A DNA stretch of 8,553 nt. It comes from a virus. Taxonomy: Duplodnaviria; Heunggongvirae; Uroviricota; Caudoviricetes. The position numbers and the translations under genes were made by a program. Position 1 is the first letter of the stretch, and every line of letters begins with the position of its first letter. The notes beneath the pieces are model-generated. The model searched no databases. It was not told the origin of the DNA and saw nothing but the letters and a program-made list of their open reading frames with translations. The DNA lies in the IMG/VR virus record IMGVR_UViG_2617270968_000006, one strand, 5' to 3'. Shown one piece after another: positions 1 to 7,569 of this stretch.

Positions 1-1011
1 TTATAACGTCACTCCGCCTTTTAGTGGATTCAGAGCGACGGCGTTCTGCAGGTAGTCAGGCGCAAGGTGCGCATAGGTCATTGTCTGCTGAATGCTCGCA
101 TGCCCCAGAATCTGTTGCAGTGCAATTATGTTGCCCCCATTCATCATGAAATGGCTTGCGAATGTATGCCGCAGAATGTGGGTTGCCTGATTGGGAGGTA
201 TATCAGGTTTCACTCTGCGTAAAATCCCGCAAAACTTCTCATAATCTACCTTGAACAATTTGGCGCTGGCCTCCTCTTTAACTTTTTTCTCCAGTTCCTC
301 AGAAATCGGCACTGTTCGCTTTTTACCGTTTTTGGTTTTCAGGAAGGTAACCCTGCAACTTGTAATCTGTGCTGGTTTTAGTGTGGCAACTTCCGTCCAC
401 CTTCCTCCAGTGCTCAGACATAAAAGCGCGACAAGTAAGTCATCACCAGTCAAAACATTTAGCAGTTTTTCGATTTCTGCTTTTTCCAGGAACGTCATTT
501 CAGGGTTAGCCTCCGTCAGTGGCGGCAGTCCGTGAATTGGGTGTTGCCCGGAAAATTCATCCAATTGAATTAATTTTGTGAACATGCCGGATAATCGGTA
601 CATGTCGCGGTTTATCGTTGCAGCACTGATGCCATCACGTAGTCGCATGGAGCGATAATCCATCAAAGCCCTTTTGTTCATCCGACTCACTGGTATATCA
701 CCTATGCCGCTGATGGTTTTGAGCAGATGATTAAACTCTTTTGTCCCATGCTCGTGGTTTTGCCCGTGGTATTTCCACCAGATGTCGAGCAATTCTGTCA
801 AAGTTCGGCGGTCTGCTCGCTGGCCTCCCCATTCTTTCTGACTGGCATTGGCGATTGTGTATCGCTCAAATGCTAGTGCTTCAGCTTTTCTTTCAAATTT
901 CCTGCGGATGCGTTTTCCGTCGCGACCGCGAGGTCTAATGTCCACTTCATAGCGACCATCATCGAGCTTCTTAATTGCCATAAGAAAGCCCTCCGGCGCT
1001 GTATTCACCAT
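1..1011 (-). CDS. int: Tyrosine site-specific recombinase (P2-type integrase), 336 aa, complete; stop codon at 1..3
   Basis: ATG at 1009-1011 (minus) to TAA at 1-3. C-terminal region has the HxxR motif (HILRHTF) and a likely catalytic Tyr (TMTYAHL); basic N-terminal arm-binding-like domain. Size matches P2 Int (about 337 aa, from memory). Confidence 0.9.
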   Translation of the reverse strand: MVNTAPEGFLMAIKKLDDGRYEVDIRPRGRDGKRIRRKFERKAEALAFERYTIANASQKEWGGQRADRRTLTELLDIWWKYHGQNHEHGTKEFNHLLKTISGIGDIPVSRMNKRALMDYRSMRLRDGISAATINRDMYRLSGMFTKLIQLDEFSGQHPIHGLPPLTEANPEMTFLEKAEIEKLLNVLTGDDLLVALLCLSTGGRWTEVATLKPAQITSCRVTFLKTKNGKKRTVPISEELEKKVKEEASAKLFKVDYEKFCGILRRVKPDIPPNQATHILRHTFASHFMMNGGNIIALQQILGHASIQQTMTYAHLAPDYLQNAVALNPLKGGVTL

Positions 1012-1050
1012 CTTGGTGGCAAATGGTGAAAATGTAATTTTTATATAGAG

Positions 1051-1344
1051 TTAGCCAATCCTTTTCGCGGAGTGGTTGGATTCTGTTGACTCTGGCCCAC
1101 TGTGCGCGAGAGACGGTGCGATTTGTCCCGCTTCCGGCGCTGTTTTATCTGTCATGAGCCATAGTGTGTATTTTTGGAACTGAGGTGCATTGGTGACCTG
1201 CAACACAACTTGGATGCCAGGGTCTTGATGGCCTCCTTCGTAATTCTTTAGCGTTCCTAACGCTATGCCGCTGATTTCACTGAATTTTGCTTGAGTTAGC
1301 CCTTCCGATTGTCTTATTGCTCTTAATTTCTGTGCGATATTCAT
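1051..1344 (-). CDS. C: P2 C-type immunity repressor homolog, 97 aa (internal start of the 158-aa track ORF)
   Basis: Translation MNIAQKLRAIRQSEGLTQAKFSEISGIALGTLKNYEGG... has an N-terminal HTH and a C-terminal segment (QFQKYTLWLMTDKTAPEAGQIAPSLAHSG) strongly reminiscent of P2 C. Sits immediately upstream of and co-oriented with int, as in P2. Start chosen at ATG 1342-1344 because the longer form would overlap the divergent promoter region. Confidence 0.8.
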   Translation of the reverse strand: MNIAQKLRAIRQSEGLTQAKFSEISGIALGTLKNYEGGHQDPGIQVVLQVTNAPQFQKYTLWLMTDKTAPEAGQIAPSLAHSGPESTESNHSAKRIG

Positions 1345-1374
1345 TTGACATAGTCCTGACTTAATGACTATATT
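1345..1374 (+). promoter_or_regulatory. Candidate early promoter (Pe-like) driving cox-B-A: -35 TTGACA (1345-1350), 18-bp spacer, -10 TATATT (1369-1374)
   Basis: Consensus -35 hexamer and near-consensus -10 read directly from the sequence, positioned between the repressor start and cox. Confidence 0.45.
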
Positions 1375-1409
1375 CCCCGAAAAGGTCATTAATCCAGAAC
1401 CTTTTCGGG
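1361..1409. promoter_or_regulatory. Nested inverted repeats in the switch region: TTAATGAC (1361-1368) / GTCATTAA (1385-1392) flanking the -10, and CCCGAAAAGGT (1376-1386) / ACCTTTTCGGG (1399-1409); candidate operator(s) or leader RNA hairpin
   Basis: Perfect 8-bp and 11-bp inverted repeats seen directly in the sequence, overlapping the candidate Pe -10 and transcript start. Confidence 0.4.
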
Positions 1410-1479
1410 CGTGAGTCCAGCGCCGCTTAAACGGTTCCAAGCGGTTTTTAAGGGGCTGGATCCTATGAGGGTAACATAG

Positions 1480-1752
1480 ATGGAAGTTAATGATTATGTG
1501 ATTAAGTACCCGCTTGATGCGGTACATGCGGAAAAGTTTGCAGATTTATTGGGTAAACCAAAAACCGCAGTTACAGAAATGATAAAGGCTAACAAGCTAC
1601 CGGTTATCGAGCTTCGAGATCCAAATAAGCCGAAGGCCCGCGCCGGTGAGAAATGGGTTTTCATTCCAGAGTTTAATCGCGCTGTACGTGAGGCGTTTTA
1701 TAACCGACCGGTTGAACAGCGTGATGCATGGCTTTTGTGGATGGGGTTGTGA
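1480..1752 (+). CDS. cox: Cox-like excisionase / early repressor of lysogenic promoter, 90 aa
   Basis: First gene of the rightward operon. Translation carries KLPVIEL.DP...RAGEKWVFIPEFN...RDAWLLWMGL, which resembles my recollection of P2 Cox. GAGGG RBS 8 nt upstream of ATG 1480. Confidence 0.75.
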   Translation: MEVNDYVIKYPLDAVHAEKFADLLGKPKTAVTEMIKANKLPVIELRDPNKPKARAGEKWVFIPEFNRAVREAFYNRPVEQRDAWLLWMGL

Positions 1753-1754
1753 TT

Positions 1755-1925
1755 ATGAATGAGCCGCGTTGTATTGCGCAGTTACTGCGTAACGAAAGCC
1801 CCAGGGCGATTGACTTCACCATCACCCACGGGAAGGGACGCAAGGGAATCATTATCCGCACCAAAAAACAGAGTCCGTTAAAAAAGGCTCTGACCTTTCT
1901 GAAAAGCCGGAGGGTATGGAAATGA
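1755..1925 (+). CDS. Small hypothetical protein, 56 aa, in the position of P2 orf78
   Basis: ATG at 1755 three nt after the cox stop; basic small protein; assignment by synteny only. Confidence 0.5.
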   Translation: MNEPRCIAQLLRNESPRAIDFTITHGKGRKGIIIRTKKQSPLKKALTFLKSRRVWK

Positions 1926-2422
1926 CAGTGATGACGCTCAATCTCGTTGAAAAACAGCCAGCAGCTATGCGCCGGATAATTGGTAAGCATCTGGCCGTCC
2001 CTCGCTGGCAGGATACATGTGATTATTATAATCAGATGATGGAGCGCGAACGGCTAACAGTTTGCTTTCATGCGCAGTTAAAACAACGTCACGCAACGAT
2101 GCGTTTTGAAGAAATGAACGACGTCGAACGTGAACGACTGGTATGTGCAATTGATGAATTGCGTGGGGCATTCTCAAAACGCCGTCAGGTTGGCGCAAGT
2201 GAGTATGCATATATTAGTTTTTTAACAGTCAGTCAGCGTCGTACTTTATTTATGCATGCCGGATTGACTGAAAAAGAATTCAACCAGCCATACTGGCGAA
2301 TTAATGAAGAATCATGTTACTGGCGTGATGCTTTATTCCGTGCATTACGTGAATTATTCAGCCTGTTTGAGTATGCACCGACAATTCTGACGTCGGTAAA
2401 ACCAGAGCAATATCTGCATTAA
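1922..2422 (+). CDS. B: P2 B-like replication protein (DnaB helicase loader family), 166 aa
   Basis: Position between cox/orf78 and the small-ORF cluster, and a length equal to P2 B (166 aa when started at ATG 1922, 7 nt after a GGAGGG RBS). Start overlaps the orf78 stop (ATGA). Confidence 0.7.
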   Translation: MTVMTLNLVEKQPAAMRRIIGKHLAVPRWQDTCDYYNQMMERERLTVCFHAQLKQRHATMRFEEMNDVERERLVCAIDELRGAFSKRRQVGASEYAYISFLTVSQRRTLFMHAGLTEKEFNQPYWRINEESCYWRDALFRALRELFSLFEYAPTILTSVKPEQYLH

Positions 2423-2485
2423 GTAATTAACCAGAGTTTTTAACGCACTTAATTGTGCGGGGCTTCTTTTTGCCTGGAGAAAGTC

Positions 2486-2710
2486 ATGCATACAGTTTCT
2501 GAAAATCAGTGCGGTAAATACGCATTACTGCTGCAACAGGCCAGAACCGAAGCACAGGCCGATGCAGCGACGCGCTTTTCTTCTCATCTTGACGCCATGA
2601 TTCGACACATCACAAAGGCGGAGTTATCCCGCGTGGAGATAGTCGAGCTGCTCAGTCAGGAGTCGGAAAAATTTCACAATATCGGATTGTCTCGCGGGGA
2701 GGTGCTTTGA
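2486..2710 (+). CDS. Small hypothetical early protein, 74 aa (P2 orf80 position)
   Basis: GGAGAAAG RBS then ATG at 2486; stop TGA 2708-2710 overlaps the next start (TGATG). Function unknown. Confidence 0.5.
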
Positions 2711-3012
2711 TGTCCTGTTCTCGTTCGGTTGTATTACTGAATAACGCCTTAAAAATCGCCGTTATGAAAAATGGCGATTTATCTCTTATTCAACTTGGTC
2801 TTGATAAAGAAAAACGCGAAATAACTGAGTCTGTTATCGCGATTTATCAGAATGAATTAAATATCCTGTCTGATGTGGTCAATTTACTTGTTAAACGCGC
2901 TGTATTTCACAAGCAAATCTCCTCCGTGGATGAACTGACGAAATTAACGACAGAAATTGCCAGCTATTGCGCTGATGAATTTAAAAAACTTAACGACAAA
3001 AGGAGCTGGTAA
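2710..3012 (+). CDS. Small hypothetical early protein, 100 aa (P2 orf81 position)
   Basis: ATG at 2710 overlapping the upstream stop; stop TAA 3010-3012 overlaps the next ATG (TAATG). No recognisable motif. Confidence 0.5.
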   Translation: MSCSRSVVLLNNALKIAVMKNGDLSLIQLGLDKEKREITESVIAIYQNELNILSDVVNLLVKRAVFHKQISSVDELTKLTTEIASYCADEFKKLNDKRSW

Positions 3013-3236
3013 TGCCGGACAACGTGGATTTTATTCAGGAACAACAGGCTGAATTACTGGAGCGTCAGATTAACGCGGCAAGGGTAAAACATTGCGGTGC
3101 TTCTGCGCTGGTTTGCGAAGAGTGTGACGCGCCAATACCTGCTGCCCGTCGTGCGGCTTATCCGTCAGCCACGCGTTGTGTTTCCTGTCAGTCAGTCTTT
3201 GAAGCAAAAAACAAACATTACCGGAGAACGGCATGA
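3012..3236 (+). CDS. TraR/DksA-family C4 zinc-finger protein, 74 aa (P2 orf82 position)
   Basis: AAAGGAG RBS before ATG 3012. Translation contains CEEC-x17-CVSC, the CxxC-x17-CxxC spacing characteristic of DksA/TraR zinc fingers. Confidence 0.7.
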   Translation: MPDNVDFIQEQQAELLERQINAARVKHCGASALVCEECDAPIPAARRAAYPSATRCVSCQSVFEAKNKHYRRTA

Positions 3237-3508
3237 GTATTCGTATTGAAATTGGCGAACGTTATGTCGTTACCAGTGACAGCTTTCAGTTTATTCTCCA
3301 CGAGAAAAAGAGAGCGGAAAGCGGTAAAAACGCCGGTCAGGAATGGCTGGCGGTGGTTGGTTATTGCCCGAAATTAAGCCAGCTCGTTTCCGGCCTGATG
3401 CATCACGATATTCTGACCGGAAGCGCAAAGTCTTTTGCTGATTTAAACGCGCAGGTTGAGCAACTCAGCAGGCGTTGTTCAGAGGCTTTGGGCTCATATG
3501 GCCGTTAA
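3233..3508 (+). CDS. Small hypothetical early protein, 91 aa (P2 orf83 position)
   Basis: ATG 3233 overlaps the orf82 stop (ATGA); its own stop overlaps the start of A by about 11 nt. Confidence 0.5.
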   Translation: MSIRIEIGERYVVTSDSFQFILHEKKRAESGKNAGQEWLAVVGYCPKLSQLVSGLMHHDILTGSAKSFADLNAQVEQLSRRCSEALGSYGR

Positions 3509-5735
3509 AGCCTCCGGGCGTTTTGTCCCTCCGTCAGCATATGCCGCAGGCACCGGTAAGACGTTTACCGGTGCTTATGCATGGAACGCGCCACGCGAGG
3601 CTGTCGGGCGCGAAAGACCCCTTACACGTGACGAGATGCGTCAGGTGCAAGGTGTTTTATCCACGATTAACCGCCTGCCTTACTTTTTACGCTCGCTGTT
3701 TACTTCACGCTATGACTACATCCGGCGCAATAAAAGCCCGGTGCACGGGTTTTATTTCCTCACATCCACTTTTCAGCGTCGTTTATGGCCGCGCATTGAG
3801 CGTGTGAATCAGCGCCATGAAATGAACACCGACGCGTCGTTGCTGTTTCTGGCAGAGCGTGACCACTATGCGCGCCTGCCGGGAATGAATGACAAGGAGC
3901 TGAAAAAGTTTGCTGCCCGTATCTCATCGCAGCTTTTCATGATGTATGAGGAACTCTGCGATGCCTGGGTTGATGCACATGGCGAAAAAGAATCGCTGTT
4001 TACGGATGAGGCGCAGGCTCACCTCTATGGTCATGTTGCTGGCGCTGCATGTGCTTTCAATATTTCCCCGCTCTACTGGAAAAAATACCGTAAAGGACAG
4101 ATGACCACGAGGCAGGCATATTCTGCCATTGCCCGCCTGTTTAACGATGAGTGGTGGACTCATCAGCTTAAAGGCCAGCGTATGCGCTGGCATGAGGCGT
4201 TACTGATTGCTGTCGGGGAGGTCAATAAAGACCGTTCTCCTTATGCCAGTAAACATGCCATTCGGGATGTGCGTGCACGCCGCCAGGCAAATCTGGAATT
4301 TCTTAAATCGTGTGACCTTGAAAACAGGGAAACCGGCGAGCGCATCGACCTTATCAGTAAGGTGATGGGCAGTATTTCTAATCCTGAAATTCGCCGGATG
4401 GAGCTGATGAACACCATCGCTGGAATTGAGCGTTACGCCGCCGCAGAGGGTGATGTGGGGATGTTTATCACGCTGACCGCGCCGTCAAAGTATCACCCGA
4501 CTCGTCAGGTCAGAAAAGGCGAAAGTAAAACCGTTCAGCTTAATCACGGCTGGAACGATGAGGCATTTAATCCAAAGGATGCGCAGCGTTATCTCTGCCG
4601 TATCTGGAGCCTGATGCGCACGGCATTCAAGGATAATGATTTACAGGTCTACGGTTTGCGTGTCGTCGAGCCACACCACGACGGAACGCCGCACTGGCAT
4701 ATGATGCTTTTTTGTAATCCACGCCAGCGCAACCAGATTATCGAAATCATGCGTCGCTATGCGCTCAAAGAGGATGGCGACGAAAGAGGAGCCGCGCGAA
4801 ACCGTTTTCAGGCAAAACACCTTAACCGGGGCGGTGCTGCGGGATATATCGCGAAATACATTTCAAAAAACATCGACGGCTATGCACTGGATGGTCAGCT
4901 CGATAATGATACCGGTAGGCCGCTGAAAGACACAGCTGCGGCTGTTACCGCATGGGCGTCAACGTGGCGCATTCCGCAATTTAAAACGGTTGGCCTGCCG
5001 ACAATGGGGGCTTACCGTGAACTACGCAAATTGCCTCGCGGCGTCAGCATTGCTGATGAGTTTGACGAGCGCGTCGAGGCTGCACGCGCCGCTGCAGACA
5101 GTGGTGATTTTGCGTTGTATATCAGCGCGCAGGGCGGGGCAAATGTCCCGCGCGATTGTCAGACTGTCAGGGTCGCCCGTAGCCCGTCGGATGACGTTAA
5201 CGAGTACGAGGAAGAAGTCGAGAGAGTGGTCGGCATTTACGCGCCGCATCTCGGCGCGCGTCATATTCATATCACCAGAACGACGGACTGGCGCATTGTG
5301 CCGAAAGTTCCGGTCGTTGAGCCTTTGACTTTAAAAAGCGGCATCGCCGCGCCTCGGAGTCCTGTCAATAACTGTGGAAAGCTCACCGGTGGTGATACTT
5401 CGTTACCGGCTCCCACATCTTCTGAGCACGCCGCAGCAGTGCTAAATCTGGTTGAAGACGGTGTTATCGAATGGAATGACCCGGAGGTCGTGAGGACGCT
5501 CAGGGGTGCATTAAAACACGGCCTGAGAACACCAAATCGTCAGCAAAGAAACGGAATCCCGTTAAAACCGCATGAAATTGCACCATCTGCCAGACTGACC
5601 AGGTCTGAACGATTGCAAATTACCCGTAGCGGATATCGCGCGCGGCGGGATAGAACGAGCGAACGAGCTGGAACACGCCGACACCGAGGCCGGTGGCATC
5701 AATTCCGATGTATTCGACGTTGTATTTTTCGGTGA
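3498..5735 (+). CDS. A: P2 A-like rolling-circle replication initiator (HUH endonuclease), C-terminally disrupted: native sequence appears to end near 5625 and the last ~35 codons read through into antisense terminase DNA
   Basis: Start MAVKASGRFVPP at ATG 3498. HUH motif PHWHMML (HWH codons 4692-4700) and a YIAKYISK double-tyrosine motif (Tyr codons 4845-4847 and 4857-4859), as in phiX174/P2 A proteins. Tail SGYRARRDRTSERAGTRRHRGRW is arginine-rich junk overlapping the minus-strand P fragment. Confidence 0.85.
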   Translation: MAVKASGRFVPPSAYAAGTGKTFTGAYAWNAPREAVGRERPLTRDEMRQVQGVLSTINRLPYFLRSLFTSRYDYIRRNKSPVHGFYFLTSTFQRRLWPRIERVNQRHEMNTDASLLFLAERDHYARLPGMNDKELKKFAARISSQLFMMYEELCDAWVDAHGEKESLFTDEAQAHLYGHVAGAACAFNISPLYWKKYRKGQMTTRQAYSAIARLFNDEWWTHQLKGQRMRWHEALLIAVGEVNKDRSPYASKHAIRDVRARRQANLEFLKSCDLENRETGERIDLISKVMGSISNPEIRRMELMNTIAGIERYAAAEGDVGMFITLTAPSKYHPTRQVRKGESKTVQLNHGWNDEAFNPKDAQRYLCRIWSLMRTAFKDNDLQVYGLRVVEPHHDGTPHWHMMLFCNPRQRNQIIEIMRRYALKEDGDERGAARNRFQAKHLNRGGAAGYIAKYISKNIDGYALDGQLDNDTGRPLKDTAAAVTAWASTWRIPQFKTVGLPTMGAYRELRKLPRGVSIADEFDERVEAARAAADSGDFALYISAQGGANVPRDCQTVRVARSPSDDVNEYEEEVERVVGIYAPHLGARHIHITRTTDWRIVPKVPVVEPLTLKSGIAAPRSPVNNCGKLTGGDTSLPAPTSSEHAAAVLNLVEDGVIEWNDPEVVRTLRGALKHGLRTPNRQQRNGIPLKPHEIAPSARLTRSERLQITRSGYRARRDRTSERAGTRRHRGRWHQFRCIRRCIFR

Positions 5736-6180
5736 GTTTGCGGATGGATTCAGCCTGGGTGGCAAAGTCCATGCCTTTCCACTGGTGACGCTCAAGTATT
5801 CTGAATTTGCCACCGGCCACCACCGGCGGTGCCAGTACCACGCATCCGGCGCTGTCGCCACGGTGTGACGGGTCGTAACCAATCCATACCGGGCGGGATC
5901 CGAACGGATTGGCGGCAAACGGCGCATAGTCTTCCCATTCTTCCAGCGTGTCGACCATGCAGCGTTGCAGCTCCTCGAACGGGAACACCGACGCCTTGTC
6001 GTCAACAAATTCACACATGAACAGGTTTTTAAAATCGTCGGCGCTGTTTTCGCGTTTAAGCTGCTCAATGTCGAACAGCGTGCAGCCACCTTTCAGGGCG
6101 TCCTCAATGGTGACAATCTGCCGCCACTGGCCGTCCGCACAGAGAAGCCCACCGGCAAGGGCGTTATGTCCCGCCGACAC
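5620..6180 (-). pseudogene. Fragment (about 186 codons) of terminase large subunit (P2 gpP-like), nuclease-domain region; N-terminal ATPase portion deleted
   Basis: Translation contains WIGYDPSHRGDSAGCVVLAPP and EYIGIDATGLGVGV, typical acidic-residue motifs of the terminase RNase-H-like nuclease domain. Minus-strand orientation relative to A matches P2, where Q and P are transcribed opposite to A. Far too short for a terminase. Confidence 0.7.
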
Positions 6181-6185
6181 CGGCC

Positions 6186-6746
6186 GTGATGGAATCTGAC
6201 ACCGATTATCGTCTGCGTATTCAGCAGGCCTTTGAAGGTTTAAGCGTCGCCGGGTCGGTGGGTGCCTATCAGTATCATGGTCGCAGTGCTGACGGGCGTG
6301 TCGCGGATATCTCTGTCACCAGTCCGTCTCCGGCCTGCGTCACCATCTCTGTGCTGTCACGTGAAAATAACGGTGTCGCATCCGAAGACCTGCTGGCGGT
6401 GGTGCGTAACGCCCTTAATGGCGAGGACGTCAGGCCGGTGGCCGACCGCGTGACCGTGCAGTCTGCCGCCATCGTTGAATATCAGATAAACGCCACGCTT
6501 TACCTTTACCCTGGTCCCGAAAGCGAACCCATTCGCGCTGCCGCTGTGAAAAAGCTGGAAGCGTATATCACGGCACAGCACCGGCTGGGGCGCGACATCC
6601 GTTTGTCTGCCATTTATGCCGCTTTGCATGTGGAAGGCGTGCAGCGTGTCGAGCTGGCCGCACCACTGGCCGACATTGTGCTCAACAGTACGCAGGCGTC
6701 TTTCTGTACCGAATACCGCGTCGTGACCGGAGGCTCGGATGAGTGA
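6186..6746 (+). pseudogene. C-terminal fragment (about 186 aa) of baseplate assembly protein J-like; 5' part deleted
   Basis: Directly followed by an overlapping ATGAGTGA junction with the gpI start, as for J/I in P2; abuts the terminase fragment with no intervening genes. Confidence 0.65.
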
Positions 6747-6903
6747 TTCGCGACTGCTGCCGACTGGCTCATCACCGCTTGAAGTTGCCGCCGCAAAAGC
6801 CTGTGCGGAAATTGAAAAAACGCCGGTCAGTATTCGTGAGCTGTGGAACCCGGATACCTGCCCGGCAAATCTGCTGCCGTGGCTGGCGTGGTCATTTTCG
6901 GTT
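6739..6903 (+). pseudogene. N-terminal fragment (about 55 aa) of baseplate protein I-like; remainder deleted
   Basis: MSDSRLLPTGSSPLEVAAAKACAEIEKTPVSIRELWNPDTCPANLLPWLAW matches my recollection of the P2 gpI N-terminus; the frame then degenerates and terminates at 6966. Confidence 0.6.
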
Positions 6904-6939
6904 GGCGGAGTTCTCCATCAGCCTGGCTACCGGTCGGGC

Positions 6940-7114
6940 AGATATTTACACGGAAACACCGGTTAAAGTGTCAGGCTTTAAGCGCGTCATAGACGAGCAG
7001 GACTGGACAATCACTAAGGTGACACATTTTCTGAATAATAGCGGCTTCACGACGTCCTTGGAGCTTGAGGTCAGGCTTTCTGATGTGGAGTACGAAACAG
7101 AAGATGATGAGTGA
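6940..7114 (+). pseudogene. C-terminal fragment of tail protein D-like (last ~60 aa), ending with an acidic tail EYETEDDE immediately upstream of ogr
   Basis: Different reading frame from the I fragment; position immediately upstream of ogr matches P2 gene order (D-ogr). Start of homology is approximate. Confidence 0.55.
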
Positions 7115-7195
7115 TGTTTTTGTTTTATCTGTTTGTTTTATAAGGATAAATTAACTAAAATGGCACCATCAACAAAACCGGAAGAGGTGCTCGCG

Positions 7196-7414
7196 ATGTT
7201 TCATTGTCCTTTATGCCAGCATGCCGCACATGCGCGTACAAGCCGCTATATCACTGACACGACAAAAGAGCGTTATCACCAGTGTCAGAACGTGAATTGC
7301 AGCGCCACGTTCATCACCTATGAGTCGGTACAGAGATACATCGTGAAGCCGGGAGAAGTCCACGCCGTAAGGCCGCACCCGTTGCCGTCAGGGCAGCAAA
7401 TTATGTGGATGTGA
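7196..7414 (+). CDS. ogr: Ogr late-gene transcription activator (zinc-finger), 72 aa, intact
   Basis: MFHCPLCQHAAHARTSRYITDTTKERYHQCQNVNCSATFITYESVQRYIVKPGEVHAVRPHPLPSGQQIMWM corresponds to P2 Ogr as I recall it, with Cys4 motif CPLC...CQNVNC. GAAGAGG RBS before ATG 7196. Confidence 0.9.
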   Translation: MFHCPLCQHAAHARTSRYITDTTKERYHQCQNVNCSATFITYESVQRYIVKPGEVHAVRPHPLPSGQQIMWM

Positions 7415-7424
7415 TCACAAAAAT

Positions 7425-7450
7425 AGCCCCTCAGTTGAGGGGCTTTATTT
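7425..7450 (+). terminator. Rho-independent terminator after ogr
   Basis: Stem AGCCCCTC (7425-7432), loop AGTT, GAGGGGCT (7437-7444), followed by TTTATTT. Confidence 0.7.
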
Positions 7451-7457
7451 ATGGTCG

Positions 7458-7476
7458 ATGTGGACGCTATGTGGAC
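7458..7476 (+). repeat. Two direct repeats ATGTGGAC (7458-7465 and 7469-7476); candidate integrase arm-type binding sites of the att P-arm
   Basis: Direct repeats seen in the sequence; they resemble my recollection of the P2 Int arm-site consensus (TGTGGACA-like) and sit where the P arm should be (just after ogr). A third similar copy, ATGTGGAT, lies at the ogr 3' end (7403-7410). Confidence 0.5.
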
Positions 7477-7542
7477 AGCGGTTGACATAAATCCATTTAT
7501 ATCATCAGGTTAGGTGCTTTTTTGTGACACCATCCCTGTCTT

Positions 7543-7569
7543 CCCCCACATGCTGTGGGGGTTTTTTTT
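7543..7569 (+). terminator. Rho-independent terminator-like hairpin; possibly the 3' end of the host gene at the att core
   Basis: Stem CCCCCACA (7543-7550), loop TGC, TGTGGGGG (7554-7561), then T8 (7562-7569). Confidence 0.65.

Follow-up and report, generated by a model that had tools for sequence, protein, structure and literature searches.

A truncated replication initiator A and its intact origin in a P2-like prophage remnant

The stretch of DNA analysed here (the window; 8,553 nucleotides of the IMG/VR virus record IMGVR_UViG_2617270968_000006) contains the replication module of a P2-like prophage that deletions have reduced to a young, strain-specific remnant. The replication initiator encoded in it, A', has kept its catalytic motifs and the origin within its own gene and has lost most of a conserved C-terminal module. 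In the explanation that we favour overall, with a probability of about 50%, this module of a decayed prophage is repressed, and A' is likely competent for nicking but impaired. The features of the window are collected in Table 1.

Table 1. Features of the prophage remnant in window coordinates
Feature	Position	Strand	Evidence and remarks
Integrase	1-1011	-	336-aa ORF, start of gene callers gives 326 aa; Pfam Phage_integrase
Immunity repressor C, P37-type, not P2-type	1051-1344	-	97 aa, HTH only; Pfam HTH_3/HTH_19 (weak)
Early-promoter-like site TTGACA-18-TATATT	1345-1374	+	Consensus scan, 11/12 matches; at the position of P2 Pe, between C and cox; putative function
cox	1480-1752	+	90 aa; protein identical to Cox of P37 and 4/4; Pfam Phage_Cox
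orf78	1755-1925	+	Open; 0 aa differences from P2
Replication gene B	1922-2422	+	Open; 1 aa difference from P2; Pfam Phage_RepB
orf80	2486-2710	+	Open, P2 length; 1 aa difference
orf81	2710-3012	+	Open, P2 length; 5 aa differences
orf82	3012-3236	+	Open, P2 length; 0 aa differences
orf83	3233-3508	+	Open, P2 length; 4 aa differences
A', truncated replication initiator	3498-5735	+	Native residues 1-710, 3498-5627; foreign tail of 35 aa, 5628-5732; stop 5733-5735
Rolling-circle Rep motif 1, F323-I-T-L-T327	4464-4478	+	Window reads FITLT; T325 and T327 invariant in 104-sequence alignment
HUH metal-binding motif, H399-W-H401	4692-4700	+	Both His invariant in 104-sequence alignment; same position in P2
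Double-tyrosine motif, Y450-I-A-K-Y454	4845-4859	+	Same position in P2
Origin hairpin GCGGC-ATC-GCCGC	5338-5350	.	Comparative, from viral-contig origin segments; identical to P2
Origin core CTCGGAGTCCTGTCAATAACTGT	5353-5375	.	23 nt, nick after G5356 (P2 29892); mapped from P2 GenBank feature; identical to P2
Deletion junction 1 (A / terminase P)	5626-5628	.	GTA microhomology; removes A 3' end, cargo genes, cos, Q and part of P
Terminase gene P, internal fragment	5626-6168	-	P2 1500-2042; 98.3% identical to P2
Baseplate J C-terminal part and I N-terminal part	6169-6902	+	P2 11623-12356; junction 2 at 6168/6169
D C-terminal end (to 7114) and intact ogr (7196-7414)	6905-7414	+	Junction 3 at about 6903
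attR core	7526-7552	.	27 nt; exact direct repeat in contig JNMA01000015; attL core 161 nt left of window start

The remnant of about 7.7 kb is located between cpxP and fieF. With att cores on both sides, an intact integrase, colinear genes and the loss of essential functions, it was identified as a cryptic P2-like prophage. Of the original phage, three illegitimate deletions left only about a quarter; cos, the genes for head, tail and lysis and the final 51 codons of A are among the lost parts. The backbone is 97-98% P2-like and encodes an Ogr protein identical to that of P2, whereas the int/immunity region is that of the viable Yersinia phage P37 (MT239398.1; 99.7% identity over int-C-cox); int, C and cox differ from P2 in their specificity. 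Downstream of A, the P2 genes orf91, tin and old are deleted together with cos. E. coli 4/4 (NZ_CP023826.1) carries an intact sibling prophage, integrated at the same site between cpxP and fieF, that is 99.1% identical over window positions 1-5628. In contrast to the window with its three deletions, A is full-length (755 aa in 4/4) and the set of morphogenetic genes complete in this prophage and in P37.

The truncated A allele was found in three contigs of two draft assemblies only, at least one of them from E. coli 3-105-05_S3_C2. The junction between A and P had no copy in 5,426 complete E. coli genomes, and none of 185,579 species-representative genomes matched it exactly. In the draft assembly GCA_000700205.1 the whole remnant is present on two overlapping contigs that are 2 SNPs apart, one of which begins exactly at the att core. 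In the sister assembly it is a single copy within one 135-kb contig. The two-contig pattern is the sole hint of amplification or instability and is ambiguous, since it is compatible with a tandem duplication and equally explained by redundant draft contigs.

The extent of A' was determined by comparison with P2 (AF063097). A blastn alignment of window 1754-5628 to P2 26290-30164 showed 97.4% identity with zero gaps. According to the GenBank record, P2 A extends from 28034 to 30319 and encodes 761 aa, which places the start of A at window position 3498 and the end of the homology at 5628. Within A, the DNA identity was 97% over 2,131 nt without indels, and 692 of the 710 native residues are identical to P2 gpA (AAD03306.1). 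A' has a characterised orthologue to which it is 97% identical, so a chance match is of no concern. As the first-pass annotation had proposed, the protein is truncated C-terminally: 155 nt or 51 codons are missing at the 3' end and 710 of 761 codons are kept. The position 5630 that it had taken as the end of the gene corresponds to the deletion junction. The reading frame continues for 35 codons through the antisense strand of the terminase-P fragment, yielding a product of 745 aa in which residues 711-761 of gpA are replaced by 35 unrelated, Arg-rich residues.

Compared to 75 intact alleles, only two residues (F15Y, P641S) and four nucleotides are private to A', which argues for a recent truncation. 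The nucleotide changes are three non-synonymous and one synonymous; with n = 4 they are too few to test. Such a ratio fits relaxed constraint, at numbers that are far too small. We also considered the private substitutions as a measure of the decay of A' since its truncation and rejected them, as four changes are too few to judge.

The catalytic core of A' is complete. Pfam PF05840 (Phage_GPA) matched residues 133-462 with 410.8 bits (cut-off 31.4) over the entire profile (positions 1-321 of 321). Motif 1, the HUH motif and the Y-x-x-K-Y motif are all placed as in P2 gpA, in line with the first-pass annotation, which had described the latter two as intact. In the 104-sequence family alignment Y450 is invariant and Y454 nearly so, at least 90% of the sequences share K453 and Y454, and every family-invariant residue is present in A'. 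The predicted fold matches the HUH nucleases, as for the P2 gpA family. In the AlphaFold2 model, the nuclease core with the HUH and double-tyrosine motifs comprises residues ~40-608 with pLDDT values above 90, followed by the disordered segments 609-635 and 676-687. A sequence search against solved structures found no relative of the P2 gpA family. The HUH and Y-x-x-K-Y architecture is shared with the superfamily I initiators of the phiX174 gpA type, whereas A' is much larger and has a long helical N-terminal region. In phiX174, the origin is inside the gene of the initiator, which acts in cis.

An origin inside the coding region of A had likewise been proposed for P2, and this is confirmed by the GenBank record, where the feature 'nick site at ori' at P2 29892 is within the A CDS. 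It maps to window position 5356, which is 272 nt before the deletion and thus upstream of about 5625, the boundary that had been set for a retained origin. The hairpin and the core are at least 250 nt upstream of the deletion and wholly retained, with no difference from P2 throughout window 5326-5417. P2, 186, Yersinia phage 31.17 and 101 viral-contig variants all share one and the same core. In 92 of the 101 distinct viral-contig origin segments, the core follows a perfect hairpin of 5 bp or more at a distance of 0-3 nt, whereas shuffling gave 1.4. Eleven different stem sequences occur among these segments, which points to compensatory change in the hairpin. Single-strand folding of the origin region was no better than shuffles (z = -0.3, -0.6), so the support for the hairpin is purely comparative. 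In distant phages the DNA homology ends at about window 5377-5383, which delimits the origin. A nucleotide-diversity scan of the 75 close alleles found no invariant run of at least 40 nt and did not delimit it. In the predicted structure, the peptide encoded by the origin forms a disordered linker. The full texts searched say nothing about the minimal ori, which strand is nicked or in which direction replication proceeds.

The part of A that was lost appears, judged from its conservation, not to be dispensable junk but a module of its own. In the AlphaFold2 model, residues ~700-745 form a confidently predicted helix-helix-hairpin of ~45 aa. The deletion cuts at R710 inside its first helix (702-716), so A' lacks most of the module and with it the full architecture of the P2 lineage. 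Residues 711-738 are nearly invariant among the 75 close intact alleles, and the motif is kept down to 45% identity beyond a hypervariable linker, which argues that the module matters for P2-lineage phages. In the PDB, Foldseek found no match to the module with E < 1. The module is absent in an Arsenophonus A and in most distant relatives, and many distant A homologues stop just past the origin peptide. Two other alleles of A, P0023 (695 aa) and P0042 (684 aa), have similar ends and are rare singletons. Phage 186 (NC_001317) encodes an A of the same family (26744-28828; 694 aa) that is naturally without the RWELEALARG-type module lost from A'. Its ori at 28576, in the 3' part of the gene, has the same core (TCGGAGTTCTGTCAATAACTGT) preceded by a GC-rich hairpin. 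Phage 186 A shows that replication initiation without the C-terminal module is possible in the family. Of the three findings that had been named as speaking against a functional A', an origin in the deleted part and catalytic mutations were not observed; the third, the loss of an essential C-terminal domain, may apply, as most of a conserved module is removed.

The upstream operon is preserved. Derepression would express A', because the promoter-like site, cox, orf78, B and orf80-83 are all intact; orf83 overlaps the start of A as in P2. With the repressor, the early promoter, cox, B, int and the att sites intact, A' should at present be repressed. The C repressor has 1 residue difference to the 4/4 allele and 3 to that of P37, all in the C-terminal tail, and no Pfam family other than the HTH is on record for it. 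An SOS-responsive element was not recognised in the remnant. Since the repressor consists of the HTH only and nothing SOS-responsive was recognised, mitomycin C, which had been proposed for induction, is an unlikely inducer. The Int protein is identical to Int of P37 and of the 4/4 prophage, and the attR-side and attL-side arms joined together correspond to the P37 attP at 199 of 200 nt. With Int, Cox and both att sites intact, the element might be excised as a circle instead of replicating in situ. Of the parts of an autonomous P2-type replicon, the ori, the promoter-like site and B are intact and A is truncated.

In the favoured reading, the intact C would normally repress the early promoter, A' would not be made, and the element would be replicated passively with the chromosome. 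Once repression is lifted, A' would most likely fold and nick its own origin, as the predicted structure and the module-less relatives suggest. Between the core and the broken module there are two disordered linkers, and relatives without the module are functional, so A' likely still nicks, an activity that we infer purely from the sequence and the model. A' would probably be less able to initiate, to reinitiate or to interact with partners, and rolling-circle replication would start abortively or inefficiently, in the chromosome or on a circle of ~7.7 kb excised by Int and Cox, with no phage output possible. The Arg-rich foreign tail counts against this reading, as it could destabilise the protein or lead to its aggregation. 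The tail and the broken module might even result in an unstable or inactive protein, with an inert origin and a neutral, decaying remnant, retained at most for repressor-mediated superinfection immunity. We regard this as rather unlikely: the cut within a confidently predicted helix, the near-invariance and persistence of the missing segment, the rarity of the short alleles, as expected of defective copies, and the three non-synonymous private changes against one synonymous all fit a dead protein, but the low-confidence linkers set the nuclease core apart from the module, 186 A and many homologues do without the module entirely, and every invariant residue is present.

A fully competent A' would make the remnant a natural P2 mini-replicon that, when derepressed, replicates as a rolling circle in situ, with the cpxP-fieF region amplified or destabilised, or as the ~7.7-kb circle. 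A P2 mini-chromosome has reportedly been constructed (Liu et al. 1993), which speaks for it. This possibility is consistent with the intact ori, A core, B, early operon, int, cox, attL and attR, with a C-terminal module that is not universal in the family and with the two contigs of GCA_000700205.1. It is improbable, however, as the module conserved in the lineage is lost, the intact repressor holds the operon off with nothing SOS-responsive recognised, the two contigs equally fit redundant draft contigs next to a single-copy sister assembly, and rolling-circle firing in the chromosome should be selected against. That these contigs are a footprint of the activity of an excisable natural P2 mini-replicon, for example an Int-mediated tandem duplication, appears very unlikely. 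A precedent is ICEBs1, an element that uses the NicK relaxase and replicates by rolling circle without excision; when it was trapped in the chromosome, replication was real and harmful, and viability fell in dependence on the replication of the non-excisable element (PMC3715440). It models the firing of a nick-initiated origin in situ, whereas element, enzyme family and host are different, so the analogy is one of consequence only.

Taken together, A' is the product of ordinary cryptic-prophage decay and the relic is probably silent. The locus has little significance beyond annotation. Its annotation should read 3'-truncated gpA fused to an antisense terminase fragment, and not a normal 'replication endonuclease'. 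The origin, defined as a covarying hairpin with an invariant 23-nt core, and the lineage-specific C-terminal mini-domain without recognisable fold relatives are possibly useful for work on P2-like replication. If A' is active, the remnant would provide a natural, small-scale case of a rolling-circle origin embedded in the chromosome and kept under repression, which could damage or amplify its neighbourhood when derepressed, similar to a trapped ICE.

The remnant of the P2-like prophage is located between cpxP and fieF on contig JNMA01000015.1, of which the window is an exact substring. When it was compared with P2 by blastn, four colinear blocks were obtained (see the table), and their order in the prophage is, from the alignment, that of three simple deletions, with 0-3 nt of microhomology at the junctions. 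The first deletion takes out the 3' end of the replication initiator gene A, the cargo genes, cos, Q and a part of P. The 1.75 kb at the left, with int, the repressor and cox, is not of the P2 type and is 99.7% identical to the Yersinia phage P37. An intact sibling, the prophage of E. coli 4/4, occupies the same cpxP-fieF site with 99.1% identity over window 1-5628.

Blocks shared with P2, origin elements and catalytic motifs in the window
Feature	Window	P2 AF063097	Match or state
orf78, B, orf80-83, A	1754-5628	26290-30164	97.4%, no gaps
Terminase P, internal piece	5626-6168 (minus strand)	1500-2042	98.3%
End of J and start of I	6169-6902	11623-12356	96.6%
End of D, ogr, att arm	6905-7504	23745-24342	93.9%
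HUH motif H399-W-H401	4692-4700		intact
Double-tyrosine motif Y450-I-A-K-Y454	4845-4859		intact
Origin hairpin	5338-5350		directly upstream of core
Invariant 23-nt origin core	5353-5375		

The A gene starts at window 3498 and its homology ends at 5628 (P2 A is annotated at 28034-30319). The truncated gene, A', keeps 710 of the 761 codons and continues into a foreign tail of 35 codons, antisense to the terminase gene and including 13 for arginine, up to the stop at 5733-5735. The first-pass annotation had proposed that the catalytic signatures survive the C-terminal truncation, and both the HUH and the Y-x-x-K-Y motif were indeed found. In a family alignment of 104 sequences, reaching down to about 30% identity, T325, T327, H399, H401 and Y450 are invariant and Y454 nearly so; all are present in A', and residues 133-462 match the Pfam family Phage_GPA with 410.8 bits. 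The full-length homologues P0022, P0052, P0055 and P0059 are named 'large subunit ribosomal protein L30' by JGI, evidently a misannotation of the source.

The same annotation had made replication in situ depend on an origin within the retained part of A, before about 5625. This position of the origin was confirmed: the P2 feature 'nick site at ori' at 29892, within A, corresponds by the gap-free offset to window 5356, 272 nt ahead of the deletion, and hairpin and core lie there too. Window 5326-5417 does not differ from P2. Distant phages resemble window 5200-5628 in their DNA only up to about 5377-5383, and an Arsenophonus element only at 5330-5380. The sequence CTCGGAGTyCTGTCAATAACTGT is common to P2, 186 and a Yersinia enterocolitica phage, which diverge directly after it; past this core, no conservation was seen downstream in the P2 family. 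In 92 of the 101 distinct viral-contig segments with the core (loci L091-L210), against 1.4 by shuffling, the core is preceded at a distance of 0-3 nt by a perfect hairpin, rich in GC and with at least 5 bp. The stems have 11 different sequences, which indicates compensatory change. By this comparison, all conserved origin features are kept in the window. The GenBank feature is annotated in plain orientation, which hints only weakly at nicking of the A-sense strand; the origin of phiX174 has the layout G-nick-...AATAAC.

The origin encodes residues 609-635 of A (window 5322-5402, …AAPRSPVNNCG…), which the AF2 model places after the folded core and before the C-terminal region, with a pLDDT <50. 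Its strong family-wide conservation may therefore reflect a constraint on the DNA and not on the protein. A 184-nt stretch of the jumbo Aeromonas phage AP1 (254 kb; MT713136.1, 242783-242966), annotated as 'hypothetical protein', is 99.5% identical to window 5200-5383, up to the core; contamination, a chimera made in assembly and recent transfer are possible explanations.

The truncation removes most of a small C-terminal module with helix-helix-beta-hairpin structure (residues ~700-745, P2 30131-30268, …RWELEALARGATVNY…), which the P2 lineage conserves. A is 744-766 residues long in a set of 75 close alleles that are intact, namely those of P2 and the 4/4 prophage and 73 found on viral contigs. 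Residues 711-738 are nearly invariant in this set and the last 10-25 hypervariable, as though the downstream cargo hotspot had its boundary within the 3' end of the gene. In homologues at 75-85% identity, conservation of the protein is lowest at 650-700, and APSaRLT..ER..I..I...L...GI...RWELEAL.ARGA.V.y is kept; the motif is still recognisable at 45-58% identity. AF2 predicted a core at 40-608 (pLDDT >90), two medium-confidence helices after the disordered origin peptide, a disordered segment at 676-687 and a confident mini-domain with helices 702-716 and 724-731 and strands 735-738 and 741-744. The cut after R710 falls into its first helix, so the module is destroyed. Modelled alone, the module had the same topology, and no fold relatives were found in the PDB. 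It is absent from the A proteins of phage 186 (694 residues) and an Arsenophonus element. When 1.84 billion representatives were searched, homology with P2 A mostly stopped at residues 600-640, and several homologues end right after the origin peptide. Hence, from these sequences, the family as a whole does not require the module; the part removed is nevertheless not neutral.

We favour, with a probability of about 0.5, an A' that can nick but is impaired. If expressed, it would probably retain site-specific nicking, since it has the whole nuclease core, disordered linkers set this core apart from the broken module and functional relatives without the module exist. A dead A' is a less likely reading. 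Normal replication is doubtful because the lineage-conserved module is lost and a basic foreign tail added, and full competence is the least likely reading.

Expression depends on the immunity repressor C, which would keep the early operon repressed so that no A' is made. C (97 residues; no Pfam family besides HTH on record) differs from its 4/4 and P37 relatives by 1-3 residues in the tail, and none of the frames of orf78, B and orf80-83 is interrupted. At window 1345-1374, the position of P2 Pe, there is a strong promoter-like site, TTGACA-18-TATATT. Overlapping it at 1346-1373 are three TGAC-containing repeats, TGACATAG, TGACTTAA and TGACTATA, 9-11 nt apart, that may serve the P37-type repressor as operators. 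Induction by mitomycin C is unlikely: no SOS-responsive elements were recognised in the remnant, and P2-type repressors are not known to undergo SOS cleavage. Lifting their repression would take an antirepressor, for example P4 epsilon.

The exact 745-aa product of A' was found on three contigs, which belong to the two assemblies GCA_000700185.1 and GCA_000700205.1 (one source names E. coli 3-105-05_S3_C2), and the A/P junction was spanned in none of 5,426 complete E. coli genomes. Four nucleotides of A' (F15Y, one synonymous change, P641S and D653E) are shared with none of the 75 intact alleles; the deletion in A is recent, and so small a number does not allow a test of relaxed selection. In GCA_000700205.1 the whole ~7.5-kb remnant is on two contigs (L004, JNMB01000027.1; L005, JNMB01000023.1) that differ by 2 SNPs, at window 122 and 199; one starts exactly with the att core's first base and the other stops 44 nt short of the attR core. 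The sister assembly has a single copy inside a 135-kb contig. The two contigs are either a tandem duplication or redundant in the draft assembly.

Replication in situ is possible, and harm from such rolling-circle type events has a precedent in ICEBs1 (PMC3715440). The alternative outcome, with Int, Cox and att sites intact, would be excision as a ~7.7-kb circle. The remnant seems able to excise: Int (window 1-1011) and Cox (1480-1752) do not differ from those of the viable P37 or the 4/4 prophage, 27-nt att cores flank it (one at window 7526-7552, the other within locus L003 6342-6503), and its joined arms equal the P37 attP at 199 of 200 nt. We consider the remnant most likely a silent, young relic, and A' is an ordinary cryptic-prophage gene fragment. 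If its A-sense strand were nicked, synthesis would go rightward, to attR and fieF. The late-gene activator Ogr (window 7196-7414) is intact and identical to the P2 protein while almost all late genes are gone, and could in principle act on the late promoters of a co-resident P2-like phage or P4-like satellite.
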